Shown here: positions 2,449 through 53,000 of the stretch, one piece after another
Numbering within the stretch: position 1 is the stretch's first letter
How the letters are laid out: every line of letters starts with the position of its first letter
Virus record (IMG/VR): IMGVR_UViG_3300030060_003581
Coordinates: 1 to 59,746 of that record
Direction: 5' to 3' (one strand)
Length of the DNA: 59,746 nucleotides
From: a virus
Lineage: Duplodnaviria > Caudoviricetes
The notes under the pieces: generated by a model
The model's database searches: none
The model's input: only the letters and a program-made list of their open reading frames with translations
Told to the model about the DNA's origin: nothing
Position numbers and translations under genes: made by a program

Positions 2449-3549
2449 TTAGATTTCAGAATACTTTACACCGGTAGCAAGGTTACTTGAATCCGCAGTT
2501 TGGGTCAAGATTACTCTTGACATATTATCGAAATTATCAACAAGAGCCACGAAGTTTAGACTCAGTGTTTGTGTGTCACGACCGCTTACATTTGAGGTAG
2601 GTGCTTCCCAGCGAACCTTACGAATGTCTACGCTAAGGCTTTGTGTGCCGTTAGTAAAGTCAAGGCTCATGGCTGGTAGGAATGAAGCAGCAGAACTGCC
2701 GTCATACAACTTACCACCGGTTGTTAGAAGCATATCATAGCCCGGCACATTTGTTGCGCTTGTTGTTGAAGCGTCTGAGAACTCAACTGTTCCTGTGATT
2801 TCACGCATCTGTGGTTCGGGTTGACGAATGTAAGTTCTGTCACCGATTGAGCAAGCCGCATCAGTGTCAAGGTTCATGTTGAAATCAATACTGATAGACT
2901 TAATCTTGGTTGATGAAACTTCTGCCGAACCTGTTTCGGAGAAGTTAACTGTTCCGTCTGCGAAGTGGAATCCATCAACTGCCGCACCACTAAAGGTAAC
3001 TGAGGACTCTAGTGTAGCAACGCCGGATTCTCTCTTGCCGCTGAAGTCAGCACTTACTGTGACATATTCTCCGTGAGCCGCAGATATACCGAGCCTGTTA
3101 ATACACATACCTGTGTAGGTGTGTTCTTTTTCCTCACGACCTACTTCAATAGTGAAAGAAGGTAGGACATTTGTTTTATCCTCAGTCCATGTGTGGACAA
3201 AGTTGCTAATTGTGTAACCGCCGCCGGAAGGAGGCTCGTTTGCAGTGGAGTCGCCGTAAATACCATAAAAACACAGTCCGAGCAAGTCGTCCGGTTGCGC
3301 TACGAAGTTTATTCCACCTTCTGAGTATTCCTTTCCATTAACAGATTTTTTTGCACCGTATCGGCTCATATCGCTTCTTGTCATTAAGTCAAATCTATAT
3401 TGTATGCTTTCGTCATCAACTTCGCCGTATATCTTATTAGTTCCACTACCGCCGCTTAGAGCCGAAGCAGTTCCGTAAGTTCTAACACCGGTGCTTGTAG
3501 TATGTTCCGGTGTGATTGCGAGGTATCTATATGTAAAATTAGAGGTCAT
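2449..3549 (-). CDS. Major tail (tube) protein
   Basis: 366 aa, beta-rich; PSFTIEVG, YTGMCINRLGIS and REITGTVEF segments typical of siphovirus tail tube proteins; position before the chaperones. Confidence 0.8.
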   Translation of the reverse strand: MTSNFTYRYLAITPEHTTSTGVRTYGTASALSGGSGTNKIYGEVDDESIQYRFDLMTRSDMSRYGAKKSVNGKEYSEGGINFVAQPDDLLGLCFYGIYGDSTANEPPSGGGYTISNFVHTWTEDKTNVLPSFTIEVGREEKEHTYTGMCINRLGISAAHGEYVTVSADFSGKRESGVATLESSVTFSGAAVDGFHFADGTVNFSETGSAEVSSTKIKSISIDFNMNLDTDAACSIGDRTYIRQPEPQMREITGTVEFSDASTTSATNVPGYDMLLTTGGKLYDGSSAASFLPAMSLDFTNGTQSLSVDIRKVRWEAPTSNVSGRDTQTLSLNFVALVDNFDNMSRVILTQTADSSNLATGVKYSEI

Positions 3550-14798: not shown

Positions 14799-16181
14799 CT
14801 ACTGAATATCATTTGGTTTGTTTTCATTTTGTCTAGGTAAATCACCCATTCCTGTTTTAGTAGGCGCTTTGTATCTTTGACTACCTAGTTCCGCTGATTC
14901 TCTAGGCAAACTTAGTTCTTCCCTTGCCTCATTGAGCGTAGTGATACCTGCTTCATAAGCCAATACGACCCTACGGGTAGTATCAAACTCGGATTCTTCA
15001 TCTAGTGGGTCAAACATAATTACAGGAATGTCTGCATTTTTATGTTCTATTCCCAATAACTCTAAGTGCTTTGAAAATAAACTGCTTATTGACTGTGCTA
15101 ATACATTCTGTAATCTGCGGATAGATTGCACCGACCACTGAGAAGCGTTAAATGTTGCCGCAAAGGTTGAACCACGCTCTTGACCCATAGAAACTCTTGG
15201 GACATGAAGCACTGCTGAAATGTCAGCATTTACATTGTCAAGGAATGACGAGTTATCGGGGATTGTATTTTTCAAATCCACGAACTTCATATCAACATAG
15301 TGTGGTAGGATAGGCACTTGGTCTGAGCGTAGCCCATCAAGAAGTGAACCTACACTATCCATAATGTTTTCAAGGCGCTCAGAAGCCTCATCCGGGTCTT
15401 GTATATTTGCGATTGCTTCCGGCCCAATTGTGACATACTGCTTGGTTAGGCTATCTTCTAAAGCAATACGATTATTCATGCTGTTATACTTAGCACGAAT
15501 CGCTTGTTTTAGTGCGGAGAATCGGGACGCACCCCAAATACCGTAAGTCCAGCGTCCCATGCTATCAATATACCAATTAGAACGGTAGTCTATTTTAATG
15601 TGCAGTATTTCATTTGCTGGATACTTTGCACTATTCATAGCATTTTCCTTGTAAAGATAAAACTTAGGTTCCATGATAGCATATTCTTTTGTAGCCGAAA
15701 ACGGTATCTTTCTATCATCAACTATGGTAATGTAACTTATTGGCAAAGATTGTAGTCTTGTTATACCAACTCCTGTTTTACCTACTAGTTTGCTAATATC
15801 ATTTCCATAAACCATTAAGTTTCTCATAGCGTTGATTAGAAAATCATCAAAATCAAGAGTATTTTCTGTCAAATCTTTGATTGCGTTTCTAATCTGTGCG
15901 TTTCTGCCACCAACTATTGTGTATTTATTAGCAGTTAAAGCAATAGTTCTAACTGCTCCGTTTAGTTCGGGGTCAAAATTAAGCATATCGTCATACAAAT
16001 CAAACTCATTTGTATTATTAAATGTGCTTTGGGTCATATCCTCAGTATCTTTTACGATATTACTAATACCAGCAGACATAACTTCAAACGGGCTTTTTAC
16101 ATTTGCTCCAACAGTAGTTCTAAGAGGAACTGATTCTGATGCCTCGGTCTTAGCAGTTTTCCAAAAGTTATACCACGCCAT
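14799..16181 (-). CDS. Portal protein
   Basis: 460 aa after TerL; NLMVYGN, EILHIK, YGIWGAS, GITTLNEAREELSL motifs. Confidence 0.9.
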   Translation of the reverse strand: MAWYNFWKTAKTEASESVPLRTTVGANVKSPFEVMSAGISNIVKDTEDMTQSTFNNTNEFDLYDDMLNFDPELNGAVRTIALTANKYTIVGGRNAQIRNAIKDLTENTLDFDDFLINAMRNLMVYGNDISKLVGKTGVGITRLQSLPISYITIVDDRKIPFSATKEYAIMEPKFYLYKENAMNSAKYPANEILHIKIDYRSNWYIDSMGRWTYGIWGASRFSALKQAIRAKYNSMNNRIALEDSLTKQYVTIGPEAIANIQDPDEASERLENIMDSVGSLLDGLRSDQVPILPHYVDMKFVDLKNTIPDNSSFLDNVNADISAVLHVPRVSMGQERGSTFAATFNASQWSVQSIRRLQNVLAQSISSLFSKHLELLGIEHKNADIPVIMFDPLDEESEFDTTRRVVLAYEAGITTLNEAREELSLPRESAELGSQRYKAPTKTGMGDLPRQNENKPNDIQ

Positions 16182-16335: not shown

Positions 16336-17853
16336 TCATAACCTTACATATTTGCCTTTGGTTGGTCTGCGGTTTATACCTTTTGGTTTTTTGTTTCCTT
16401 TAGTTCCCCACCCACCCATGCTAGTTTTTTTAGAAATCATAGGCATTAGGTCATTTGTTTTTGATTTGAATTGGTCTATTGCGTGTGCAAAAGCCATAAC
16501 TGTATCGTTATGCTTGCCCACATCAACAATATCACCGTTTTTCCAAACATGCGCTTCTAATTCATCAAGAATAATGTTGACTTTTTTTCGTGTAGCGTCA
16601 TCTCCATATGGAAATACTACTAATTCTCTCTCAAACCAAACTCGCAACCTATTCATTAATCCTTGCTTGAGTCCTTTGTTGGATGCTTTAGATGGCTTGT
16701 AATCAACAATTGCGCCTTTTTGCTGAATAACTGTTTCGTAAAGTCGCTGAAAACCTACATCTTCTGCTGCTACTGAACATTTGTATAACTTTGCCCACTC
16801 AATAATAACATCTGCTTGTCTATCCGGCGGGAAATCATTTTTGCGCCACATATCAACAAAATGCACATACCCCTGTTCATCTTGGCGCAAACATATTAAG
16901 ACGGAGTAATCTTTGCCTATACCATGAGCGGGGTCGAATCCGAGGATGAAGGCACTATTGTCCAATTGACTGTTGAAACCACCAACGGCAGTTATGTCTA
17001 TGTTTTTTCTGATGAGATGCCTATTGAACACTTGGGAATCATCGTCCACGACCTTACACAAATACTCCTGTGCGAAAGCGAGGTCGTCGTCTATGCTGAT
17101 TTTCTGTTCCAGCAAAAACTCGGTGGGTCTGAACTCGGCCCACAATGGCAATAAAGGAATATTATCGGGGTCTGCTCTATGCTCATCCCAATTGGGAAAT
17201 GCAGACCAAACTCCCGATTTCCAAACTGCTTTTGCTTTTTCAGATAACATTTCAGTATGATAAAGGTCAGTATGAGACATAGGTGTGCCTACGCAAAATA
17301 ATGATGTGCCGGGGTCTAACATAGGTGTGATTACCTTCTTGAACCACTCAGCAACAGTCTCCATAGTCATGTCACCCATCTCAGCAAGCACATCATCAAG
17401 TGCTACTACCGCAGGGTGTTCACCACGAATAGCAGAACCTACACCGGTTGCTTGAATCCAAGCCCCATTTGTAAATTGTATTCTATTTTTATTTGACTTT
17501 TTTTCATCAAGATACTTTCGTAGTTCGGGATGCCTACGCATATCCGTTTTGATTTCCTCAAGACGATTTGTAGCCTGCCGTATGCTTGCTGAAAATAACC
17601 ATACTTCCATAGGCTGACCGTTGCGCCTTTCAAACAAACACATATGCAGTAGTTTAACTCGAAGTGTAGCAGACTTACTGTGAGAACGGGGGGCAATAAT
17701 ACAGACACGGTGGACTTGAGCGCCCTTTCTATTACCGTATAGTTCCATCCATTCCCCTATATGGTCTGCCCATTTATATTCGGGAGACAACCATTCGTAA
17801 AAATGTCTTATGTCGTGGCGTGAACGCTCGAAGTTAAAGTTAGGCATTACCAT
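16336..17853 (-). CDS. terL: Terminase large subunit
   Basis: Walker A APRSHSKS, Walker B VALDD, GTP coupling motif, nuclease GFDPA and KHNDTVMA motifs. Confidence 0.95.
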   Translation of the reverse strand: MVMPNFNFERSRHDIRHFYEWLSPEYKWADHIGEWMELYGNRKGAQVHRVCIIAPRSHSKSATLRVKLLHMCLFERRNGQPMEVWLFSASIRQATNRLEEIKTDMRRHPELRKYLDEKKSNKNRIQFTNGAWIQATGVGSAIRGEHPAVVALDDVLAEMGDMTMETVAEWFKKVITPMLDPGTSLFCVGTPMSHTDLYHTEMLSEKAKAVWKSGVWSAFPNWDEHRADPDNIPLLPLWAEFRPTEFLLEQKISIDDDLAFAQEYLCKVVDDDSQVFNRHLIRKNIDITAVGGFNSQLDNSAFILGFDPAHGIGKDYSVLICLRQDEQGYVHFVDMWRKNDFPPDRQADVIIEWAKLYKCSVAAEDVGFQRLYETVIQQKGAIVDYKPSKASNKGLKQGLMNRLRVWFERELVVFPYGDDATRKKVNIILDELEAHVWKNGDIVDVGKHNDTVMAFAHAIDQFKSKTNDLMPMISKKTSMGGWGTKGNKKPKGINRRPTKGKYVRL

Positions 17854-19962: not shown

Positions 19963-20124
19963 GCTTCTCAATCTCCAATTATTTCTTCGCCCTGCTTCGG
20001 GCATTTGGGACACGGGGGAGTTTGCTTATATATCCTCCCTCGATTTGCATTAGATTTTGCTTGTTTTACAGACATTTTTGATTCGCCGAGCAACAAATCA
20101 ACAGTATGTAAATAATGTATAAAC

Positions 20125-20144
20125 AGTCTTATACAATAATAAGG
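20125..20144. repeat. 20-bp inter-cassette repeat AGTCTTATACAATAATAAGG, copy 1
   Basis: Exact copies at 20518 and 21041; internal inverted repeat CTTAT-N6-ATAAG. Confidence 0.9.
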
Positions 20145-20159
20145 CATCTATACCCACAT

Positions 20160-20207
20160 AAAAAAAGAGAGAAAAAAAGAGAGAAGCGGGAGGCCGAAGC
20201 CCCCCGC
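20160..20207 (-). terminator. GC hairpin (UUCG loop) plus TCTCTCTTTTTTTCTCTCT tract
   Basis: Directly downstream of ORF 20224..20451. Confidence 0.7.
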
Positions 20208-20223
20208 CCCTCAAAGTCCCTGC

Positions 20224-20451: not shown

Positions 20452-20517
20452 TTTGGTCGCCTCAATTTACCCGACAGGGTTTCCACATATATACCCTTCG
20501 ATTCTGATAATCTATAT

Positions 20518-20537
20518 AGTCTTATACAATAATAAGG
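20518..20537. repeat. 20-bp inter-cassette repeat, copy 2
   Basis: Identical to 20125-20144. Confidence 0.9.
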
Positions 20538-20582
20538 CTCGCTGTCCCACGAAAGGGAGAGAGAAAAAAAGAGAGAGAAAGG

Positions 20583-20955: not shown

Positions 20956-21040
20956 ATTCTTTCTCACCTCCCCGCCTGTGTCTCGTCGGATATTATGAAC
21001 AGCCAAGCCATAGTATATGAAGCCAGCGACTCTAACATAT

Positions 21041-21060
21041 AGTCTTATACAATAATAAGG
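21041..21060. repeat. 20-bp inter-cassette repeat, copy 3
   Basis: Identical to 20125-20144. Confidence 0.9.
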
Positions 21061-21076
21061 ATATTTGCACTCCACA

Positions 21077-21134
21077 AAGGAGAGAGAAAAAAAGAGAGAG
21101 AAGCCCCCCACCCCGCCGAAGTGGGATGAGGGGC
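21077..21134 (-). terminator. GC hairpin plus polypyrimidine tract
   Basis: Same TCTCTCTCTTTTTTTCTCTCTCC tract as at 20160 and 20556. Confidence 0.65.
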
Positions 21135-21179
21135 GAAATCGACAATTTTGTCGTATACAATACTACTACCTACCAAGAA

Positions 21180-21518
21180 TCAAATCTTGTATAGGGATAG
21201 GTTCCAAGCGTTACCTAGTTCGTAATAGTAGCCTTCTTTTTCTAGTATGTCACTGAACTCTAACTGAAGTTTAGCATCGTGTTCGCTAAACCAAGCATCG
21301 TTCATTACTGCATACAGTCCACCTTCAAAGGACATGCTGATGGTGTCATCATTAGCATACTCGAAATAATCACTGCCCTTAATGTCGGTTAGGACAGTAT
21401 AGTTACCGTCGCTATTGTAATCCCAGCATCTATTATTCCAATATATCCTTGTATCGTGATAGATTTCATGTCTCTTTAGGAAACGATGAATCTTCATTAC
21501 TAACGCATATTTTCTCAT
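21180..21518 (-). CDS. Hypothetical protein (cassette 4)
   Basis: 112-aa ORF with a CAGGAGGT RBS. Confidence 0.7.
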   Translation of the reverse strand: MRKYALVMKIHRFLKRHEIYHDTRIYWNNRCWDYNSDGNYTVLTDIKGSDYFEYANDDTISMSFEGGLYAVMNDAWFSEHDAKLQLEFSDILEKEGYYYELGNAWNLSLYKI

Positions 21519-21845
21519 TTGTTATACCTCCTGTTGTTTGCTCCAACAATACACCCGAGGAGGCTCTTGCATATAATATGTCCGTCAAGTATAGTTGCGC
21601 TATAACGCACCATAGTAGTATGTGTATGTATAGGGAGAGAGAGTTTTCTATATATCTTATAGTAGTAAGTCTTATGTGGCAAATTGCCGTTGGGAGAGAG
21701 AAAAAGAGAGAGAAAAGTTGGTTGAAATCGGCTATTTTGTTATTTTTTGTTATCTTTTTTTTACCACCAAAACCGTTGCACTGCATAATTGTCTATTGAA
21801 TCTATATAGATGAAGTTTATACCAAATCGTGTATTCGCTTACATT

Positions 21846-22183
21846 GTCGGGGGCGACCCCGACCGAAGCAACTTGCGGCATCATCGGGTTCACTCCGAGA
21901 AGGCCACTCGATTGGGGGTTCGCTCTCAACACAAGTCCTTGGGCTGGATACCCAAGGCACTCTAGGTATCGCCACAGGCCACAGTCGCTAGAGGGGAGTG
22001 ACACCACTCAATGTGAGGGTATGCAAATCAGCATATGTCGAACACTGATTAACACAGTGTTACACTACGAATATTCTCAGTGGACTGAGCCGTAGTGATT
22101 TGTGACAAACCAAGACCAAGTGGGGAATCACTCCCACCTATTCATTCAATCCTATTCCTTTGATTGAGGAGATTCCTCAATCG
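21846..22183 (+). ncRNA. Highly structured ~340-nt leader or ncRNA
   Basis: At least 10 consecutive hairpins, including GCGA (GNRA) and UUCG tetraloops with G-U pairs favouring the + strand; TTTATA box at 21816. Confidence 0.6.
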
Positions 22184-22200
22184 TTTATCACAGTCCAACT

Positions 22201-24753
22201 ATGGACAAGGAGATGCAAAATATGTATGCAGCAAACGGAACAGGCGACAGTGTGGTAGGACTACTTCCACTTCTATGGGTATTCATGCTCATGGCAGCGG
22301 TAGTCATTACCATCACTAGAAACAGAATGAATAGACAGATGACAAAGCGTATCGGCTTAGAACTTGAAGTTATCAAGCAAGCACATGCCCGAGAAAGCCC
22401 AAATCAAAAACTTGCTACTTGGCTTGAAATCAAGGGCAAGGAATGGCGACAAATGCAAAAGGAATCATCCTTATTGCATAAACTCAAAGTTCGCTTCATG
22501 GGATACACCCATGAGGTAATTAGTGGCACTAAAATCGTCACTGATTCGTCACTAAATAGTGGCGGCATTGAGATAGTATCACCACCTTTGGAGGGCAATA
22601 ATGCTGATGAATGGATAGACCAAATAGCCTACGGGCTGAAAGGTGTTGCCAATGTTGACTCGTCAACGGGACTTCACCTTCATATTGGACTTAGAGCCCC
22701 GAGTAATAATTGGAGTTCGCATGAATCAGATATTCTAGGGTTAACGGAAGGTAGCGAATACCGTCATGGCTTTTACTTAGCCAAAGCGGTTCTAGGTGCG
22801 ACATTGTTGACCGTTGCTCTATGGCAGCCGGTCTATAACCGAATGGTGGCTAAGTCACGACGAAACGGTCAGTGGAGTCGTGATGTATCCTTCATCCTAG
22901 GCAAATCATTTGTCTCAAGATACTTCCATGAACACAAGGAAAACGGCTACGATGCGGATAAACATGTTCGCTTCCTAAACAAAGTCGCAGACTACTTCAT
23001 TGGAAATGGAGATAGATATTATTGCGTTAATTCGCAAGCCTTTGAGCGATATGGAACCATTGAGTTCCGCAGCCATCAAGGCACAACCAATGCTCGCAAA
23101 ATCAAGGGCTGGGTTGATATGCACTATTTGTTAGTTCAACGATGCACAAATGAGTCGTGGTTAGACATTTTAGACTATAACCATGAATCAATCACAGACT
23201 TCTTTGGGTTCTTAGGAGTGTCACCATCAGACGACCTGTTTAGGCAGCAAGTCAGAAGGATTCGCAAACTAAACCCAAACAATCTCAATACAGTGTTTCA
23301 GCATGACCCACAACTAGGACTAGAACATCTATTCCAACACAGTGATTCATGCTCGGTATGCAAGTCAACAACTTGCGACCACGATGATGAATGCGGTTCT
23401 AAACCAAGTGTCAAACTTGGCAATCAAATCGCAAGGCATTTCGTCCAAAGTCGTCACATGAACTGTGATAACTGTGGTGAATACTCACTGCGAGATATAG
23501 AGCGAGGCGGATATGACATAGATTGGTATGACAATCATGCCGATGCTTACTGTCCGTCGTGTGATACTATACGGTCATTCTCAATGTCAACTACTTGGCT
23601 TGGTGGACTGTTCTTGTCACTAATGTTTGGTATCAGCCCAATGCTACTACTTACGGTAGGGTGTGGGATTGGTGCTATTCATGTAGCAAGGCGAAAGTTC
23701 CGAGAGCGAAACCTAGCAACCAAGTTGCTTAGGGCACTTCAAGTGAGAGGCGGCCAAGCCGCTGGATATGCCTTCAACAAAGGCAAGCAAGTCTTCTATC
23801 TGAAAATGGCAAGACCTGCTTCCTATGTAGCAAACAAAATCCGAAAGGACATTACTCCCAAGGAAACAAATTGGTGGCTCGGTCACACAAGGTTCGCTAC
23901 TCATGGAGCAAACAATGACAAGAATGCACACCCACATTTTAGTCGTGAAGTGGATATAACCCTAGTTCACAACGGGGTAGTTCACAACCACGACGATGTG
24001 TGGAAGGCACTCGGCCAAGAGCCAACCGGCGAGGTTGATTCACAGGCCGTAGCACAGTGCTTACAGGTCGGTGGCATCGAGGAAGTTGTCAAACACTGCG
24101 AAGGGTCAATGTCACTCATATGGCATGACAAACGCAGCGGAGAAGGCACTCTGAAATGTTGGACTAACGGTGGAAATCCATTAGTCATGGGTCGAATAGA
24201 CGATAGCAAGACGGGTGCGGTAGTAATCGCATCAACTGAGGCTATACTCAAGCAAGCCGTCGGCAAGCGACTCAAGACCTCATGGGATGCTACCATAGGC
24301 CGTGAATACACAATCCAAGCAGATGGAACGATAACCAAGCGTGACATTGAGGGTAGTGAAGCAACGGCTGGTATCACATACGATTGGAGGACATACACAT
24401 ATCTCCCCAAGAAGACAGTTACCAAAGGTGGCAAGCAAACTCCCGTCAAGAAGCAATCAAAACCGAAGCCGGTTAGGAAATACAAGCCTAGGCCGCCAAG
24501 GTGGGTTGTTGACCAAGCCAAGTCCGACTTAGAACTTGGCGAAATGGGCTTCCCAAGCCGAGCCGGTTATCACGGCTATGACGCCAAGAAGCACATGGGA
24601 GTTCGTCCCGATGGTGGCATGTATGACCTACCACAATATCTGAACCCATACGCATATGCGGATGACCTAGTGGAAGTCCTTCGGGGCGACCATGAGGGAT
24701 TCGTAGCGACCAATTGGGATTCATGCGAGTGGCGTGACTACTACATCAACTGA
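22201..24753 (+). CDS. Membrane-anchored amidoligase (COOH-NH2 ligase type) fused to class II glutamine amidotransferase
   Basis: IGLELE, DSSL, EIVSPPL, GLHLHIG, RYYCVN, TIEFRSHQGT amidoligase motifs; Zn-finger Cys pairs; TM segments; CGIG, RG..AAG, GHTRFATHG, NAHPH, HNG, DS GATase-II motifs. Confidence 0.85.
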   Translation: MDKEMQNMYAANGTGDSVVGLLPLLWVFMLMAAVVITITRNRMNRQMTKRIGLELEVIKQAHARESPNQKLATWLEIKGKEWRQMQKESSLLHKLKVRFMGYTHEVISGTKIVTDSSLNSGGIEIVSPPLEGNNADEWIDQIAYGLKGVANVDSSTGLHLHIGLRAPSNNWSSHESDILGLTEGSEYRHGFYLAKAVLGATLLTVALWQPVYNRMVAKSRRNGQWSRDVSFILGKSFVSRYFHEHKENGYDADKHVRFLNKVADYFIGNGDRYYCVNSQAFERYGTIEFRSHQGTTNARKIKGWVDMHYLLVQRCTNESWLDILDYNHESITDFFGFLGVSPSDDLFRQQVRRIRKLNPNNLNTVFQHDPQLGLEHLFQHSDSCSVCKSTTCDHDDECGSKPSVKLGNQIARHFVQSRHMNCDNCGEYSLRDIERGGYDIDWYDNHADAYCPSCDTIRSFSMSTTWLGGLFLSLMFGISPMLLLTVGCGIGAIHVARRKFRERNLATKLLRALQVRGGQAAGYAFNKGKQVFYLKMARPASYVANKIRKDITPKETNWWLGHTRFATHGANNDKNAHPHFSREVDITLVHNGVVHNHDDVWKALGQEPTGEVDSQAVAQCLQVGGIEEVVKHCEGSMSLIWHDKRSGEGTLKCWTNGGNPLVMGRIDDSKTGAVVIASTEAILKQAVGKRLKTSWDATIGREYTIQADGTITKRDIEGSEATAGITYDWRTYTYLPKKTVTKGGKQTPVKKQSKPKPVRKYKPRPPRWVVDQAKSDLELGEMGFPSRAGYHGYDAKKHMGVRPDGGMYDLPQYLNPYAYADDLVEVLRGDHEGFVATNWDSCEWRDYYIN

Positions 24754-34179: not shown

Positions 34180-34184
34180 TACTT

Positions 34185-34430
34185 ATCGTATTAAGTTAAT
34201 TAAGTTTAGAACTTCAAACTTAAAAAAAAGCAATACGGAATGCTACAACCGCTAATTAAGTTATTATGTCTAATATGTTTATCATTAGGCCACTAATACT
34301 ACTTAGTTATATTATAGTTATATTATTAAATTAATAACTTAATAGACTAAAAAACTTAATTCAGCATATCGGGATTCAGTAAAGCGTTTATTTAAGTTAC
34401 AGAATCTAAACTTAATGAACTTAATTCGGT
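34185..34430. other. Candidate replication origin
   Basis: AT-rich intergenic region with 9 TTAAGTT/AACTTAA heptamers, upstream of the replication cluster. Confidence 0.6.
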
Positions 34431-34435
34431 AACTG

Positions 34436-34450
34436 TTAAATACTGACGAG
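34436..34450 (+). promoter_or_regulatory. Middle promoter motif (TATA plus CTGACGAG)
   Basis: TTAAATACTGACGAG; copies at 39548, 44220 and 46502. Confidence 0.7.
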
Positions 34451-34467
34451 GGATTGGTGATAATTAC

Positions 34468-35280
34468 ATGAGAACAAACAAAGGAACAATTGACCTATAT
34501 CATGCTGAACCGCTACCAAGTGTTGACAAAGTAATCGTATTCGCAGAAAACGAGTTCGGTCTTGCATCACTGATGGCAGTTAGGACTGTTATAGGAGAGC
34601 GAGAGCCGGATGCAATAGCATTGAGTCATCTATTACCTGAAATGGGATTCAATTCAGCACCCGACATGAAACCTATTGGCTGGGAAATACACTTTGAAAA
34701 GACCAATGACGAAACCATAGCATATGTTACGGTTACTAATTGGCCTACGATACAGTTATTCCCACCGGAACAAACCAAAAATACATGGATATACACATAT
34801 CCGCCTGTTAGAGATTTTGTTGAGTTGATGAAAGACAATGGTGCAAAGGAGTTACTATACATCTCAAGCACTACTATACATGAGGCGTTGAACCCCGAAG
34901 TGTTTGAGTTGCTTTCTCCAAAAAAGGTAAAGAGTTATGTGTTTGGTAGCGATAAAAACACTAAGCATAATCTATTCTTTACTCCGCCAACATGGTTATT
35001 CCCATACTTGGCACACTGTATGAACTATGAACACAGTGAGATTATACTATCGGGTTGTGAGAATGGTGCTGAAATAGACGAACAGGCAGGCTGGACTTTG
35101 ACTAAGTATCTGTCATCAGTGATTGGTGAAAAAATCAAGAAGCCTCTATACAATAGAGTCGTAAAACAATTACGCAAGGAGGCTGAAAGAATTGCTGAAC
35201 TAGAGTCCGAAGTAACCGAGGCTCTAAAGAAGCACGAAGAACGGGCAGGTAGCAAGCCAGCAGAACATATGTGGGGCTGA
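34468..35280 (+). CDS. PAC2/PbaB-like proteasome assembly chaperone/activator (candidate)
   Basis: Size, GLASLMAVRTV helix, GAKELLYISS, EIDEQAG..L..VIG, C-terminal coiled coil ending in MWG (HbYX-like). Confidence 0.5.
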   Translation: MRTNKGTIDLYHAEPLPSVDKVIVFAENEFGLASLMAVRTVIGEREPDAIALSHLLPEMGFNSAPDMKPIGWEIHFEKTNDETIAYVTVTNWPTIQLFPPEQTKNTWIYTYPPVRDFVELMKDNGAKELLYISSTTIHEALNPEVFELLSPKKVKSYVFGSDKNTKHNLFFTPPTWLFPYLAHCMNYEHSEIILSGCENGAEIDEQAGWTLTKYLSSVIGEKIKKPLYNRVVKQLRKEAERIAELESEVTEALKKHEERAGSKPAEHMWG

Positions 35281-39575: not shown

Positions 39576-40475
39576 ATGAACCAAATATGGGCAACGAAGC
39601 ACAGGCCAATACACCTTGATGATTTCAAGGGACAGGAACACATTGTAAAGGAAATGAAATACATATTGTATGGCACTGCTAAAATGCAGCACTACATTTT
39701 CTTTTCCCCCGAACCGGGGACAGGTAAGACTACAATGGCTCATATTCTAGCAAAGCAGTTGGGATATGAAATACATCAATACAATGCTTCATCTAAGCGT
39801 CAGCGTGGCATAGAGTTTATCGAGGAGGAGTTAGCACCTATGACTCGGCTCGGTCAGTATGAAACAATTTATTTCTTGGACGAAGCAGACCAACTAACGC
39901 CTGCCGCACAGTCGGCACTCAAGGGTGTGATTGAGGATGCACAGGGCTTTTTTATTCTTACTTGTAATGACCTAAGCAAAGTCAGCCCTTGGCTTCAATC
40001 CCGTTGTCAAGTGCGAACCTTTGTTCCTATACTAGATAGTGATATGCGAAAGCGCCTATCTAGTATTGATGGGACAGAAGGTTTCCAAACTCCTATTGAG
40101 GATATTAATGCGATAGCAAAGGCTAACAAGGGTGACTTGCGTAACGCAATAAATACACTACAAGCCTACCATTCTATCCCCGAAGCAGACAGGCAATCAT
40201 TTTTATCAAGGATAGGTGAGCCTCCTGTTGATGCACAGAAGATACTTACGCTTTGTATGAAGGAGCAGAATGTTGAAGATGCCGTCAAGTTGATGGGTTC
40301 TTCTAACCTTAGAAAGACAATAGACGCCGTGTTTAGATACGGTATTGATTCTCCCGCTAAGCCAACCAGCAAACTAAAGTTGGTTGAGGCAGCCACCCAA
40401 GCGCACCGTGATTTACTCATGGGCGTTGAGTCCCACTATGTAGTGTGGGATTTTTGTAGGAGGCTAGCGTCATAA
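39576..40475 (+). CDS. rfcS: Replication factor C small subunit (clamp loader)
   Basis: WATKHRP, PGTGKTT, NAS, LDEADQLT..AQSAL, SRC and GDLRNAIN motifs. Confidence 0.92.
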   Translation: MNQIWATKHRPIHLDDFKGQEHIVKEMKYILYGTAKMQHYIFFSPEPGTGKTTMAHILAKQLGYEIHQYNASSKRQRGIEFIEEELAPMTRLGQYETIYFLDEADQLTPAAQSALKGVIEDAQGFFILTCNDLSKVSPWLQSRCQVRTFVPILDSDMRKRLSSIDGTEGFQTPIEDINAIAKANKGDLRNAINTLQAYHSIPEADRQSFLSRIGEPPVDAQKILTLCMKEQNVEDAVKLMGSSNLRKTIDAVFRYGIDSPAKPTSKLKLVEAATQAHRDLLMGVESHYVVWDFCRRLAS

Positions 40476-44247: not shown

Positions 44248-46494
44248 ATGCAAGTAACACATACAAGCGGAAGAAAAGTAACTATCAGAAGGCGTGACCC
44301 CGACACTCTTGAGCGCATTCAAGAAGTGATAGAGGCTTACCCCTACTGCTTTGTTCCTACTGAAAAGTTAACTGATACTTACGGTTTGGTAAGGGTCGAA
44401 GAAGGATTTGAAGGAGTATATGGCACTAAGTTATCTAAGGTGTATTTTAGAAACGAATACGACCGTAGGGATTGGGCTAGGGCTAACCACACTTGGGAAG
44501 GCAGTATGCCTTTTACTAACCAAGTTCTTATTGACAGGTTGAAGGACAATGAACCATACCCTAATTACGAACACAGGATATGGTATATTGACGGTGAGTG
44601 GAAAAAAGAGTCTGAGGAAATAACTATCCTCAGTGCTTACGATTCCTACACCGGTAAAATGTTCACATGGGTTCAGCACCCCGATATTGAGCCGGGATAC
44701 CATAGTAGTTTGCCCTGTAAGAATCACCCCGATGGTTTGAAAGAAATCCATTTCGATACAAAACTGAAAGCGTTTGCTAATGAGCGTCAACTGCTGGCTG
44801 ACTTTGCAGCACATATGGCTAAACATGACCCCGATGTGTTGACCGGTTGGTATTTTGTTGACGCTGATGTATCAACAATCAGCACTCGTATGCGTAGGCT
44901 TGGGCTTGACCCACGCAGATTATCGCCGCACAATCAGCATAACTACAAATACAGTGCTACTGAAAAGCGTTGGACTCAGCCCATTCCCGGTCGCATGTGT
45001 ATTGACTTGATGATTGCATTCAAGAAGTTATGGACTATCAAAAACGGTCAATTAGCAGGGCAAAAGTTAGATGATGTTGCGGAGTTTGTATTAGGTGAGC
45101 GCAAGGTCGAGTTAGAAGATGGGCATGATACCTATTATACCGACATAGGCACATACATTGACTACAATAGACAAGATGTGCGTCTTTTACCTAGACTAGA
45201 TGAGGAAATAAATGCTATCAATTACTACACTTCACTGCAACACTTAGTTCAGTGCGACATAGAGACTACTCCTTTGACCACGCTGCCCTCGTCATGCCTA
45301 TTCTTACAGGATGAACAGTTCGATGGTCGCATTCCCGATAACCCAAGGTTCAACAAGATTGACTACGAGGGCGCTGACATACAAGAGCCTGTTCCGGGTC
45401 GTTATGAGAACATGGCAATCATGGACATTAAGGCCATGTATCACTCTAATGTAAAGTTGCATAACATATGCTGGACTACTCTTAGTGACGACGGAAAAGA
45501 CTGTGGTAATGGCAGTAAGTTCTCACAGGAAAAGTCGGGATTGTTAGGTAGGACTATGGATAAATTGACAGTCAAGCGTAATGAATACAAGGCTTTGATG
45601 AAACAGGCCACCACTGCTGCTGAGAAGCGCAAGTGGGATGCTATGCAGTTTGCTACCAAATCAATGGTTGCGTCCCTATATGGTGTATCCGGTGACTCAA
45701 AATACGGCATGTATCACCCCGATATAGCGTCTGCTATTACATACACAAGCAGGCAGACTTTATTCCGCTTGCGTGATGAGTGTAATGAGCGTGGTTATCC
45801 TGTTAGATACGGACATACCGACTCTATCTTTTGCGAAGTTCCTAGTCCCGAAGAAGGCATGGGACTTGTTGCTAAAATTAACAAGGCTATGCACCCAATA
45901 GAAACTGAGTTCGAGAAGTGGTGTGCTACTATGATACTAAAACGCAAGAATCGTTACGCTGGTAAGGTCACATGGACTGATGGACAGTATCACGACCCGC
46001 AGTATTATTACAAAGGTCTTGAGTTAAAACAAGCCCGTATGCCGAAGGCTATGAAACAGGCTATGGATAAGACCTTGCGTGGTATTCTTGATGGGGCAGA
46101 CCGTCAGCAGGTTGACTCCGAACTTATTTCCCTTATAATGAAAGGAAATGAAGGTCAACTCGGTGAGGACTTGTTGCAGATTGGCAAACTCAAGATGCCT
46201 CTATCCCGTTACAAAAGTATCAGTGGCGCAGCCGCAGGTGCGCTTTGGGCTAAACAATACTTAGATAAGCGATACGAACCGGGCGAGACCTTTTTGACAG
46301 CGATTGGGGCTGGTGGGCAATACTATGCGTTTGACAAACTAAAGGACTTAGAGGGCGTCGCTAAGATTGATTGGTCGGAGATGACTGAGCGATTCATTGT
46401 CAACAAGGCTTGTGACATTTATGACTTGGTTGAATGGGACACTCAGCCGCTATGGAACGCTCATAGAGGCATTGGTAATGTCGAATGGTTATAA
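44248..46494 (+). CDS. polB: Family B DNA polymerase
   Basis: ExoI IDGE, ExoIII YNRQD, motif A DIKAMYHS, motif B KSMVASLYG, motif C YGHTDS, KNRYAG, KGLE. Confidence 0.95.
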   Translation: MQVTHTSGRKVTIRRRDPDTLERIQEVIEAYPYCFVPTEKLTDTYGLVRVEEGFEGVYGTKLSKVYFRNEYDRRDWARANHTWEGSMPFTNQVLIDRLKDNEPYPNYEHRIWYIDGEWKKESEEITILSAYDSYTGKMFTWVQHPDIEPGYHSSLPCKNHPDGLKEIHFDTKLKAFANERQLLADFAAHMAKHDPDVLTGWYFVDADVSTISTRMRRLGLDPRRLSPHNQHNYKYSATEKRWTQPIPGRMCIDLMIAFKKLWTIKNGQLAGQKLDDVAEFVLGERKVELEDGHDTYYTDIGTYIDYNRQDVRLLPRLDEEINAINYYTSLQHLVQCDIETTPLTTLPSSCLFLQDEQFDGRIPDNPRFNKIDYEGADIQEPVPGRYENMAIMDIKAMYHSNVKLHNICWTTLSDDGKDCGNGSKFSQEKSGLLGRTMDKLTVKRNEYKALMKQATTAAEKRKWDAMQFATKSMVASLYGVSGDSKYGMYHPDIASAITYTSRQTLFRLRDECNERGYPVRYGHTDSIFCEVPSPEEGMGLVAKINKAMHPIETEFEKWCATMILKRKNRYAGKVTWTDGQYHDPQYYYKGLELKQARMPKAMKQAMDKTLRGILDGADRQQVDSELISLIMKGNEGQLGEDLLQIGKLKMPLSRYKSISGAAAGALWAKQYLDKRYEPGETFLTAIGAGGQYYAFDKLKDLEGVAKIDWSEMTERFIVNKACDIYDLVEWDTQPLWNAHRGIGNVEWL

Positions 46495-49321: not shown

Positions 49322-50050
49322 ATGCTAGTAGTTGATGACCGAGAGAACGACCTTTTGATTCACAAACTCTATGCTTCTATGGGCAATCACGATGATGGCG
49401 GCCATGTTAAAGTAAAGCGGCTACAATCCGCAGATTACATCATAGGTAACATAGGAATAGAGGCCAAAGAGATAAATGACTTGTATCACTCTATTATGGG
49501 TCACGGTCGCTCTCGGACTATTGTAGGGCAACTGATGGACTTACAGGAAAACTTTGAGCGACCTATGCTTGTAGTTTATGGAACTCAATTAAAACCTTAC
49601 ATTCCCGGGGGCAGACCTAACCGACAACAAATGGCGAGAGAGATAAAGAAGATGAACGCAGTAATCAAAAAGTTCAAGCAGAATCTAATTATACAATTCC
49701 CAAATATACAATACATGGAACTGTCAAGCATGGATGACATGGTTGATTGGCTTTCGTCTGTGCATCACAATTTAAGAATCCGAAGGATGCCTGTCGCAGA
49801 ACCGAGAGAGAAGACAAAAAGTTCCAATAGGAAAATTGATTTGCGAGTTAGAGTCTTGTCATCCATAGAAGGAATATCCGAGAGAGCCGCACATGACTTG
49901 TTAACCGAGTTTGGCTCAATTCCACGCTTGTTGCGCTCTCGCACAAGCCAGCGAAAACTCATGGAGATAGACGGCATAGGGCGCAAAAGAGCCAAGGCTA
50001 TTCTATCCCTGCGTGAACGCTATCCCGACCAGCCCGAACCAAAAGACTAA
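49322..50050 (+). CDS. ERCC4/XPF-family nuclease with C-terminal HhH repeats
   Basis: VDDRE, ADY, IEAKE, IEGISE and IDGIGRKRA. Confidence 0.85.
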   Translation: MLVVDDRENDLLIHKLYASMGNHDDGGHVKVKRLQSADYIIGNIGIEAKEINDLYHSIMGHGRSRTIVGQLMDLQENFERPMLVVYGTQLKPYIPGGRPNRQQMAREIKKMNAVIKKFKQNLIIQFPNIQYMELSSMDDMVDWLSSVHHNLRIRRMPVAEPREKTKSSNRKIDLRVRVLSSIEGISERAAHDLLTEFGSIPRLLRSRTSQRKLMEIDGIGRKRAKAILSLRERYPDQPEPKD

Positions 50051-53000
50051 CGCCCATAGGTCATACTGCCCGATTGACTTGAACCCGATACGGATTGGGT
50101 GTCAAATGCTATTTCTATCGTGTGTAATGTAAGCGCAGTGTATTGAGCAGTGTCGGGTGAAACACCTGCGGCACGACCAAAAGACACTTGTATGGTGTTG
50201 CCGGTGTTGTTAGCGCCGATAATAGGCTCAGCAAACAATATGGCTTGCACATTAGTTCCTTCTGCCAAAGTAACTGTTTTCGTTATTGAATGACCGGTTT
50301 CACGGCAACTTACTGTTACATCTAACGATGCCACTTGTCCCGACGGGCAAGGCAAAGAGTATAGACTTGACACAGTTACCTTTCTCCCTCTTGGGTTAGA
50401 AGGAACTCTAATGCTTGTAGTGGACTCGTTGTATGCGTTTGTTGCGTCAGTAGCGCCAGCAAACGACACACCTGTTGTTGAGAACATACAGTCACCGGAC
50501 GAAGTAGTAGTAAAGGTATCAGTTCCCGATTCGGGGTCATCGTTTGTTGGTGCATCTGACGGCTTCTTTTGACCTAAAACATTGAACCCTCCGCCTGTAA
50601 CGCTATCATTGTTAAAGTCCATCGAACCCTTTATTCTTTTAGTAAAGTTACTATTGAGGATATTGCTACCTAAAGCAAAGGCAGAACTGTCGTTAAGAGC
50701 AGTTCCTCCAACCTTAAATGCCCCGCTTGTTACGGGGTCGTATCTGCTACCTGCGGTTGTGCCGCTATTTATGGAGGCCACACCGGCTACTCGACCAAAG
50801 CCACCGTTAGAAGGATTACCACCATATTTGTCATTGTTATATCCCTGTGCCCCCTGTTCACCGGGTTTGAAGTTACCGCCTCCGGGGAATGTCTTGCCAC
50901 CGCTACCAGCGTTAGGCGGTAGGAACAGTGCGGCAAAGTGTTGAATATTTCTATTTACATCACGCTCAAGAGTAAATGATACTTGCTCATTTTGTCTTGC
51001 ACTTTGAGACCATTTGATAGATTTTATGAACATAGGTTCTCGAGTCAAACCCATTGAAAGGTCACTGTAACTTACCTGCGTAGCAGGCACGAAGTTTATG
51101 TCATCACAAATATGCAAACGAGGCGCATACCATTCTGCTCTTGTGTTAAAATAAGATGGCTGAGCGCCTTCCGAGTATGGGAATGCCGTTTGGTTTTTGG
51201 GAGTAAAGTCACCAACACCTAACGGGAATAAACTCTCGGACTGAACAACGCTGTAACCGGAATCACCTACATAGTTGCACCTATTCCTTAAATTATTAGT
51301 GCCACATCTATTCTTTGCTACTGCTAACAAATAGTCGTAATTTACAGACAGAATAATTCTTTCACTACCGTCCCTAAGCGACCAATAAGAACTAGGTATG
51401 TCTATCTCATAGAATCCGTTAGCATCCACCGTTACTTTAGTTGAACTTACCGCACTATGAGGAACTCGTCCTTCGGCGTTAGGGTTGCCTTTCCATAGAT
51501 AATCTATTAGTTTAATAGTAAAAACAGGGTTAATTGCATTAGCAGGGTATTCCTCAATACTATCACCATCTCCTACTTCTATTACCATTCTTAAATTGCC
51601 ATCAAAAACATAACCTGTGCCGCTTGCGTTGTCTGCGCCGGATTGAGGATTGTCAGTTATTTTAGGCATATTTCGTGGTATGTGGACTACTTGCACTGCA
51701 TATGATAGTGACCGAGAGCCATACCAATAATAACCCTCATCATAATCGTCAGACCCGCCCCCTAAATATGCGGCGGTCTTTGTTGATTGTCCCGAGCCTT
51801 TTACATCTAAAGCAGACACCATTCCGGGGAATGGGTTGCCCCCAAACAAAGAAGCCCAAGCCCACCCTTTGTCGGTAACATCTGACCCAACCCCACTGTT
51901 AGAATATGGTATAGTTTGTGACCCGTCAGCGACATATCCAAATCTTGCACCTTCGAGCATAAGAGTCTTGTCGCCATACAGATTGTTGGCGCTTTGATTG
52001 TCACTAAATCTTGTTATTTGAGCCTCGACTTGCAGTGGCGCTTGTTTGGTCTTTTCGTATTCTGCCTTAGCGATTGCTAAAGCCTCGGCTTTAGTTCCTA
52101 CTTCGGGCATACTAAGTATATTCCATTTAGGAGTTGAGTTTAATGAAGGGGTAGGGTAGTCAATAAATAGACCAGCCCCGCCATAAAATACTCTAACATT
52201 GGTAAATTGTTTTACTGCTTGTGTCTTAATAGAAGATACTCTTAGATTACCTTCATCAAACATAGTGTTTATATCATATGTGGGTCTAAACGATGGACGA
52301 CCATCCCTGCCCATAATCCAACAGAACATTTGACGCTGACCGTATTTATCACTTGTTCCAGCCAAACCTTGTGTGCTTGAGTATATTGCCCCAAGTGTGC
52401 TATTCCTACAATCATTTACACCACCAAAGTCGTCAACAGTCTGCGCTTCTCTCCACCTACCAAAAATACCACTACTACCCGTAGGAGTGATTGCGTTTAG
52501 TGCAGTAAATGTGCTACTTGTTTTAGCAGTAACAGTAAAGTCCTTAGTTTTGCCCATAAGACCTAACTCATCACAATCTATCACTGTTACTATGTCGCCT
52601 ACCACTAAGTTATGTGGCTTATTAGAACTAAATACTGAACTGCCTCCGCTTGGAGTAGTTATGCCTGTAATAAGACCACTGTATGTCAACGCATCTTTTT
52701 GCGTAGTAGTCATGTTTTTGCTAACAGGTATTGTTGCTATATTTGGAATACCGTAGGCTTTTGCTTGCTTTAACCAAGTCTCGGCTAGTATGTCGGAATA
52801 AGCGCATCTAAACTTATCACTATCATACCAAGTGCCGCTTGCTTTATTTTCAATAAACCCGTTCAAAGACATAATTAATCTCATAGGGAATATATTAGCA
52901 AGACCGCCATAAACTATGGCATCAGAATAACTATTCTCAGCATCCGGGTCTATTTCAATATTAATATGTGATTTATTGTCGTATGCAGGTATAGTTCCCC

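Follow-up and report, generated by a model that had tools for sequence, protein, structure and literature searches.

A conserved plus-strand structured RNA, absent from Rfam, directly upstream of the amidoligase-glutamine amidotransferase gene of a tailed virus with archaeal-type replication genes

The stretch of DNA analysed here, called the window in what follows, is the whole of the IMG/VR virus record IMGVR_UViG_3300030060_003581 (Duplodnaviria, Caudoviricetes; 59,746 bases, with a completeness estimate of 99%), and the element under study is a region crowded with hairpins which runs on the plus strand from position 21846 to the start of a fusion gene (22222-24753, plus strand, 843 amino acids), in which Pfam and NCBIfam recognise an Amidoligase_2 domain and a class-II glutamine amidotransferase (GATase) domain. 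The hairpin region is present once in the genome, within a gap of 682 nucleotides (nt) between a minus-strand open reading frame (ORF; 21180-21518) and the fusion gene, referred to below as the amidoligase gene. It is a real and conserved structured RNA, encoded on the plus strand and belonging to a family which is absent from Rfam.

The locus opens with a TATA-like box, TTTATA (plus strand, as are all the features below; 21816-21821), read from the sequence and from the alignment of such boxes in 16 loci as part of a predicted archaeal-type promoter; the original prediction for this region had placed the box at 21816 as well. The 5'-terminal hairpin P1 (GTCGGGG-GCGA-CCCCGAC, 21846-21863) carries a GNRA loop, and its first base, G21846, is the predicted transcription start. 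It is followed by the conserved single-stranded word CGAAGCAA (21864-21871), CGA(A/C)G standing right behind P1 in 16 of 18 loci. The variable hairpin H2 (GGC..TCGGG-TTCAC-TCCGA..GCC, 21877-21905) comes from the minimum free energy (MFE) fold, and other hairpins occur in the relatives. P2 (TTGGGGG-TTCG-CTCTCAA, 21912-21929), with a UUCG loop and two G-U pairs, is found as a helix of 7 base pairs in all eight close loci. Covariation in five sequences was obtained both for H4 (CCTTGGG-CTGGATA-CCCAAGG, 21937-21957) and for H5 (21960-21993), where CTCTAG and CTAGAG pair around a loop of 22 nt, GTATCGCCACAGGCCACAGTCG, conserved in sequence. H6 (GAGTG-ACAC-CACTC, 21996-22009), H7 (GTATGC-AAATCA-GCATAT, 22019-22036) and H8 (AACACTG-ATTAACA-CAGTGTT, 22041-22061) were read from the sequence only; in the long-form relatives a hairpin AATCG-AGAG-CGATT occupies the place of H8. 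H9 (22063-22097), an outer stem CACTACG/CGTAGTG with an inner CTCAG-TGGA-CTGAG, shows compensatory changes in relatives. The A/C-rich single strand ACAAACCAAGACCAA (22105-22119) then leads to H10 (GTGGGG-AATCA-CTCCCAC, 22120-22137), where the exchangeable core ends. The constant tail starts with the pyrimidine-rich linker TATTCATTCAATCCTATTCCTTT (22139-22161) and continues with T1 (GATTGAGGA-GAT-TCCTCAATC, 22162-22182; covariation in three sequences), the conserved word TTTATCACAGTCCA and the hairpin T2 (GTCCA-ACTA-TGGAC, 22193-22206), the last two covering 22184-22206 and abutting the ribosome-binding site. Once the sequence was read and the coordinates re-derived, all the stems listed in the original prediction were recovered, none of them more than one base from its announced place, and the further hairpins H7, H10 and T2 were read as well.

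ATG 22222 has a Shine-Dalgarno sequence, AAGGAG (22207-22212), 9 nt ahead of it, while the start assigned mechanically to the ORF is ATG 22201. In the relative L002 a 1-nt indel separates the homologues of these two codons and puts the upstream ATG out of frame. Because only the homologue of ATG 22222 is in frame both in the window and in L002, translation of the amidoligase gene probably starts at ATG 22222-22224 and not at 22201.

Relatives were fetched with the amidoligase protein and a three-sequence alignment, giving 22 loci on viral contigs and 13 on metagenome contigs. The analysis used the 17 loci in which the orthologue is full-length and is preceded by 1.7 kb of sequence (L003-L016, L025, L031 and L032), so that the 18 loci mentioned here are the window plus these 17 relatives; L002 and L004 are one contig. 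Eight distant or partial matches (L017-L024), five metagenome loci equal, or by eye nearly equal, to viral contigs (L026, L027, L030, L034, L037) and five loci with a short upstream part (L028, L029, L033, L035, L036) were left out. The protein family comprises 31 clusters at 90% identity, all of them environmental. Short sub-alignments were used throughout, because whole-region MAFFT alignments were poor in the variable middle, too poor for consensus folding. Scanning viral contigs with DNA patterns enlarged the family no further: the tail motif matched 33 stretches, the real ones being on three already known contigs, the H5 loop matched just two contigs, both known, and the 14-mer CCGAAGCAATCGGA matched at least 112 stretches, chance matches with no real one among those listed.

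The first line of evidence is a layout shared by 16 of the 18 loci, the window included, in which a TATA-like hexamer, an unconserved spacer, a G...C hairpin and then CGA(A/C)G follow one another upstream of the gene. In L003 and L015 the box and the hairpin are present and the CGA(A/C)G word is absent, as judged by eye. The spacer between box and hairpin measures 23-24 nt in 14 of the 16 (24 nt in the window); L006 fits this spacing in an alternative hairpin register, and in L012 the expected place is taken by a different A/T-rich hexamer. When the 16 loci are aligned on the first base of the hairpin, TTTA(A/T)(A/G) occupies roughly -30 to -24, and every one of them has T at -1, the G at +1 being a consequence of anchoring the alignment there. 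The P1-type hairpins are unrelated in sequence across the 16 loci, the spacers being equally free to differ, and the hairpin loop is a GNRA loop in five of the eight close loci. The layout is kept among relatives whose proteins are only ~35% identical. Moreover, in 2.9 Mb searched on both strands, which took in ~141 unrelated viral contigs and eight distant amidoligase/GATase relative loci, the strict pattern matched the upstream regions of this gene and nothing else. The layout is thus specific to the amidoligase upstream region across a marine virus clade.

In archaeal-type promoters an A/T-rich TATA box is centred ~26-27 nt ahead of the start, which is itself a purine (+1) preceded by a pyrimidine (-1). 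The position of the box, the T at -1 and a purine at the predicted +1 were all found here, and, since the distance from box to hairpin fits, a promoter of archaeal/eukaryal type with its start at G21846 is predicted; this would agree with the archaeal flavour of the replication genes. No clear B recognition element was seen at the predicted promoters of the 16 aligned loci. A sigma-70 promoter, tried as another reading, fails to fit the whole family.

The second line of evidence comes from pairing. Covariation was sampled in 3-8 mutually related sequences per helix, so that the shuffle counts given for it are not to be taken as probabilities. In five aligned sequences H4 and H5 together have 17 pairs, six of which are changed on both sides, with 97.5% of the cells paired; H4 contributes eight pairs, four changed on both sides and 100% of the cells paired, and H5 six pairs, two changed on both sides. 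None of 500 column shuffles reached any of the five measures, and sliding the partner by 1-3 columns lowered pairing to 22-57% and compensatory pairs to zero. The seven pairs of P2 form in all eight close loci, with U-A or C-G at position 2, G-C or U-A at position 3 and G-U, A-U or G-C at position 4. The helix closes a tetraloop in three loci, among them the window, and encloses 38-83 nt in the other five. The outer stem of H9 is CACTACG/CGTAGTG in the window and in L006, CATTGAG/CTCAATG in L025 (three compensatory pairs) and CACTAGG/CCTAGTG in L008 (one). For T1, two of nine pairs are changed on both sides in three sequences, GACTGAGAA/TTCTCAGTC in L004 standing against GATTGAGGA/TCCTCAATC in the window. 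Furthermore, tail helices of the relatives reach the Shine-Dalgarno bases and covary, with CCACCC..GGGT(A)GG in L005 and L006 versus CCCACC..GGTG(A)GG in L007, and the helix before the ribosome-binding site is CTTG..CAAG in L008 versus CTGT..ACAG in L009. At this last place (L008 2925-2960, L009 2890-2925) a small hairpin has been replaced with the stem kept, CTTG-CCCC...GGGG-CAAG versus CTGT-CCGAC...GTCGG-ACAG.

The strand follows from wobble pairing. Position 6 of P2 is G-U in all eight close loci, and a second G-U pair is found in the window and in L025. On the opposite strand G-U becomes an A-C mismatch, and the minus strand of the window's P2 is predicted to be unfolded (0.0 kcal/mol). 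Because of this wobble, conserved in every close relative, the plus strand is the RNA strand. The structure has therefore been kept by compensatory changes, and its strand is fixed by a conserved G-U pair. An alignment with related viruses had been suggested along with the original prediction, and its outcome, compensatory changes in several helices together with a plus-strand wobble, bears the prediction out.

The 3' part of the core is less clear. Words resembling CAAGACCAAAG stand before a hairpin, at a comparable distance from the ATG, in L011, L013, L031, L032, L012, L014, L016, L007 and L003. A covariance model built from four group-C sequences, with the window left out, matched the window at 22096-22138 with an E value of 5.8, so that homology of the A/C motif across groups is not demonstrated, although the match falls at the expected place. 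Two further candidates were discarded: the long-range helix TGTGA/TCACA of the window's MFE fold is not conserved in L025 or L004 (by eye), and kink-turn-like GAUGA words, noticed by eye in some relatives, do not occur in the window.

Folding energy agrees with the comparative data. For 21846-22200 on the plus strand the MFE is -125.8 kcal/mol, against a mean of -100.8 (standard deviation 6.1) for 100 dinucleotide shuffles, which corresponds to z = -4.12, with no shuffle folding as well; folding beyond shuffled controls, as had been expected, was thus obtained. From the first hairpin to the start codon (21846-22221, 376 nt) z is -6.06 with 40 shuffles. Among the eight close relatives the plus-strand z is -2.2 or lower in every case.

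As for catalogued families, the Rfam scan proposed with the original prediction was run in the window and in relatives with no family matched. With Rfam 15, whose models include GOLLD, ROOL, OLE, HEARO, the glutamine riboswitch, RNase P, SRP, tmRNA, 6S and self-cleaving ribozymes, there was no match at gathering score in the whole window and none at E <= 10 in 21500-22300; likewise there was none at gathering score in 14 related loci and none at E <= 1 in eight. A search for tRNA and tmRNA gave none. None of the catalogued families includes this RNA.

The relatives also show how far its size may vary. Measured from CGAAG to the start codon, the distance is 359 nt in the window, 309 nt in L004, 379-393 nt in L005, L007 and L009, 529-545 nt in L006, L008 and L025, 804 nt in L010, about 930 nt in L014 and L016, and 1126-1205 nt in L011, L012, L013, L031 and L032. 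RNA length in the relatives thus goes from ~330 to ~1200 nt, and by these distances the window holds a short form of a family which reaches 1.2 kb. Its core is a mosaic: over 72-73 nt the H4-H5 block shares 83-85% identity with L005 and L009, and the part with H8 and H9 is built like the long forms.

With respect to the role of this RNA, the original prediction had offered a large non-coding RNA (ncRNA) or a riboregulatory leader. The structured RNA itself stands, on the plus strand, through covariation, the G-U pair and the shared layout; of the two roles, the leader is favoured. With moderate confidence, we read the region as a structured RNA made from an archaeal-type promoter and serving as the 5' leader of the amidoligase-GATase mRNA. 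Transcription of the plus strand would start from TTTATA at 21816-21821, probably with G21846, the first base of P1, and would probably run on without a stop into the fusion gene with its ATG at 22222, making the first ~376 nt of the RNA a 5' leader. Such a leader would consist of a GNRA-capped 5' hairpin, the invariant CGAAG, a core of about ten mostly local hairpins (21872-22138) and a two-hairpin tail, this constant tail ending at the ribosome-binding site. The terminal hairpin may shield the 5' end from decay, the tail helices may tune translation of the gene, and the core could be a stable, independently functioning RNA domain that, for example, binds a factor or is released by processing. 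The RNA lies on the strand of the gene and borders directly on its Shine-Dalgarno site. Between P1 and the ATG the window has no stretch of four or more consecutive T, nor any TATA-like box placed for a second start which would retain the conserved Shine-Dalgarno; it is on this lack of a terminator-like T run or a second promoter between RNA and gene that the preference for a leader is based. Moreover, in 10 of the 16 loci, among them those of all eight RNAs of 0.8-1.2 kb, no run of five or more T precedes the gene. At the minus-strand terminator-like sites of the same virus, T7 runs follow GC-rich hairpins.

Several observations weigh against the leader. Leaders of 0.3-1.2 kb are very long for archaeal mRNAs, and the archaeal host itself is deduced from the replication genes. 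In the tail of 6 of the 16 relatives there are T5-T6 runs which could end transcription ahead of the gene. The predicted accessibility of the ribosome-binding site is ordinary: the median unpaired probability is 0.36 across the 18 loci and 0.54 for 14 further genes of the window, the window's own site having 0.61, so that occlusion of this site is not distinctive in the predictions. Stability is not exceptional either, as in a GC-adjusted MFE scan of the plus strand the windows from 21841 and 21981 rank 31st and 6th of 849; the case for the RNA rests on conservation, because stability alone is not unique in this genome. Finally, core and gene evolve independently. Per 100 columns, the flanks of L008 and L009 are 71-97% identical (the amidoligase genes 78-98%), and their cores are ~30% identical, the replaced stretch being bordered by CCGAAGCAATCGGA and, on the 3' side, by the tail linker word AATCCTATTC. 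Conversely, L008 and L006 are 72-80% identical in their cores, 43-61% in the genes and 25-51% upstream. The window and L025 offer a second, independent pair, 89% identical over 697 nt upstream (21037-21730) and 90% from 22139 on, and unlike in between. Since both versions keep P2, divergent alleles of one RNA, recombined at conserved borders, are indicated and not unrelated inserts. Antisense-type action of the core on the start region was also considered and is not supported: the best duplex was no better than with shuffled cores in any of the 16 loci (z from -1.79 to +1.33), and no complementarity beyond chance was found.

The main rival to the leader, which we regard as possible and clearly less probable, is a separate stable ncRNA of ~290 nt (21846 to ~22138), ended or cut before the tail and acting in trans, for instance as a protein-binding scaffold, a decoy or a specificity/immunity RNA, with the amidoligase gene merely lying downstream. 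Exchange of the core as a unit speaks for it, with the same borders in two independent pairs (at 22139 in window/L025 and at AATCCTATTC in L008/L009), as do the conservation of one core type beyond that of its neighbouring genes in L008/L006, the T5-T6 runs behind the core and the hairpin at +1, a common trait of stable RNAs. The window, on the other hand, has neither a run of four or more T nor a suitably placed second box, the eight largest members lack T runs of five or more before the gene, and the RNA was found only directly upstream of this gene, once in the genome.

A broader proposal can be put forward tentatively, namely that the window RNA founds a new class of large, modular, highly structured RNAs (0.3-1.2 kb) of archaeal tailed viruses with an autonomous core, which might then work as a decoy, as a ribonucleoprotein scaffold or in determining specificity in an immunity-like way. 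Such a class would explain why near-identical genomes carry different cores, why a core type outconserves the genes and why a protected 5' hairpin always comes first.

That the region acts as DNA (a replication origin, a cruciform or a protein-binding array in the divergent control region) or as a minus-strand RNA is improbable. The site does coincide with the switch in gene orientation and with the cumulative GC skew minimum, and the minus strand folds well too (z = -4.89 for 21846-22200 and -5.05 for 21846-22221). Nevertheless, the invariant G-U of P2 is an A-C mismatch on that strand and leaves P2 unfolded there, the plus-strand z is below the minus-strand z in seven of the eight close relatives, and the fixed TATA-to-hairpin spacing points to plus-strand transcription.

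A protein-coding gene or a leader peptide is very unlikely. The candidate, singled out in the original prediction as the possible encoder of a conserved protein, is an 88-amino-acid ORF with a GTG start (21829-22095), open in the window and matched by tblastn in L005 (E 3e-7) and L004 (E 1e-4). The ORF exists, but its frame is not conserved: it has no Pfam match, it is closed in L002 and it begins ahead of the predicted RNA start, G21846. The tblastn matches are pieces of 23-31 amino acids over the nucleotide-conserved H4-H5 block, minus-strand ORFs give equal pieces over it, and relatives differ by one-base indels within it. No conserved frame was found by eye among the relatives, in which stop-free stretches reach 79 amino acids at most, except for 120 in L012. 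Judged by its reading frames, the hairpin region is shown to be non-coding.

Equally improbable are chance hairpins in an unconstrained spacer, for which the unremarkable GC-adjusted ranks may be quoted and which the shuffles, the compensatory changes in several helices, the H4/H5 and P2 data and a layout conserved at ~35% protein identity contradict.

Four known kinds of system come nearest. One is that of GOLLD and ROOL, large ornate RNAs from phages and prophages (10.1101/2024.12.08.627333, PMC5737381), these being, in the accessible text of these sources, virus-borne, hundreds of bases long, helix-rich and non-coding, recognised by conservation and covariation and without an established function. 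As far as that text goes, the window RNA differs from them in having no Rfam match, a fourfold length variation in its family and mostly local hairpins, as well as in its leader position before one gene on the same strand, in a virus with archaeal-type replication genes. The c4 RNAs of bacteriophages P1 and P7 and the CI RNA of P4, of ~80 nt, are cut from a leader and pair with target sites in the same transcript. They resemble the window RNA in sitting in an untranslated operon leader and in having versions which differ among otherwise similar phages; however, the family described here measures 0.3-1.2 kb and complementarity between core and start region does not exceed chance (16 loci). Riboswitches, for example the glutamine riboswitch before nitrogen genes, also lie directly upstream of and co-oriented with their genes; here, too, the gene encodes a glutamine-using enzyme and the RNA helices end at the ribosome-binding site. 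Unlike riboswitches, the window RNA has no Rfam match and no evident compact, invariant, pocket-like core, its middle is replaced wholesale between near-identical genomes and its size is far above that of known aptamers. The protective 5' stem-loops of bacterial mRNAs, as in the ompA, ermC and aprE leaders, are matched by a hairpin from the predicted first base in 16 of 16 loci, but they would account for P1 alone and not for the other 350 nt. A 229-nt host ncRNA, Tan1, has been reported in marine group II archaea (PMC5069720); in the accessible text it looks unrelated, and it is set apart here by its description only. In the literature on archaeal-virus amidoligases, magroviruses and archaeal-virus structured RNA (supplementary files not covered), no description of the window RNA was found, and no large conserved structured RNA is described there for viruses with archaeal-type replication genes.

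Structured RNAs that are both large and conserved are seldom found. In this context, the present family marks an uncultured clade of marine viruses by a clear promoter-plus-start signature, its lengths from ~330 to ~1200 nt form a natural series useful for dissecting modules, and near-identical genomes with different cores provide natural 'allele swaps'. The family also points to a regulated or RNA-linked role of the amidoligase-GATase fusion, a viral enzyme, at a locus where annotation pipelines would leave 0.4-1.2 kb empty or filled with false ORFs.

The genome around the RNA is organised in two arms which diverge at ~21.5-22.2 kb, the place of the cumulative GC skew minimum. The minus-strand arm carries the tailed-virus morphogenesis genes, such as terminase (16336-17853), portal (14799-16181) and tail tube (2449-3549), and the plus-strand arm the replication genes, with a family B polymerase (44248-46494), an RFC small-subunit-like clamp loader (39576-40475; the match, with E 2.5e-41, does not reach the curated cut-off), a Hef/XPF-type nuclease with helix-hairpin-helix motifs (49322-50050) and a PD-(D/E)XK nuclease. 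An archaeal-looking replication and repair set (clamp loader, Hef/XPF nuclease, family B polymerase) is thus found in a tailed virus of ~60 kb, and several relatives are contigs of 60-62.7 kb. The host would be an archaeon if these genes are a guide. The terminase has distant matches to haloarchaeal viruses, among others. No relative of the amidoligase gene was found among 185,579 prokaryote genomes, which consequently give no clue to the host. In a phage collection there was no DNA match, and the protein matches (tblastn) were partial, confined to the GATase domain and covering at most 27% of the protein. Amidoligase and GATase genes have been reported in one Poseidoniales virus (PMC11706807), and in the accessible text of that paper the words non-coding, ncRNA and intergenic do not occur; the ICTV profile of that virus's family gives an 87-kb genome (PMC13108676), and this is not obviously the clade of the window virus. 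The window also contains two very long minus-strand ORFs, at 50047-57045 (2332 amino acids) and at 57056-59746 (at least 896 amino acids, running off the end of the record).

Some features of the fusion protein deserve mention. Its class-II amidotransferase domain begins at residue 481, which aligns with profile position 1-2 and is the Cys of CGIGAI, and a hydrophobic stretch lies directly before that residue (within residues ~460-490); a further hydrophobic stretch is found at the N-terminus, and the middle part is rich in Cys. Class-II amidotransferases require the Cys of the catalytic domain at a free N-terminus. Because of this requirement, the fusion protein may be cleaved, or its amidotransferase domain may be made separately.

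Other elements were noticed in the control regions. Close to the RNA, the window keeps the word GTTGCACTGCA (~21776-21786), similar to CG(C/A)TG(T/C)ACTGCG, which is widely conserved in the relatives and in L014 is present again as an inverted copy ~150 nt away. A word resembling CCTATCATGAACGG, absent from the window, occurs as two direct copies in L004, L005 and L009 and as one variant in L014. The sites of these two kinds of word are L004 2490-2540, L005 2420-2455, L009 2405-2440 and L014 ~1880-1960, and they are candidate regulator or origin sites. Runs of the GGGAGAGAGA type are found in the control regions of all relatives. Between small minus-strand genes a cassette is repeated at 20120-20215, 20513-20580, 21036-21135 and 21145-21165, consisting, on the minus strand, of a GC-rich hairpin, TCTCTCTTTTTTTCTCTC and then TATTGTATAAGAC (four copies, 0-1 mismatch), and looks like a terminator plus promoter unit. 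In the small minus-strand genes at 20.1-21.2 kb the promoter-like repeats precede the likely start codons by ~60-80 nt, and for these genes the original remark that leaders elsewhere in the genome are short or missing appears doubtful. Finally, the strongest GC-adjusted outlier of the genome scan is an AT-rich intergenic stretch (GC ~0.29) at 34180-34468, with many direct and inverted words resembling AACTTAAT, which folds as a single long, imperfect hairpin (z = -4.74, equalled by none of 100 shuffles) and could be an origin or an operator array.

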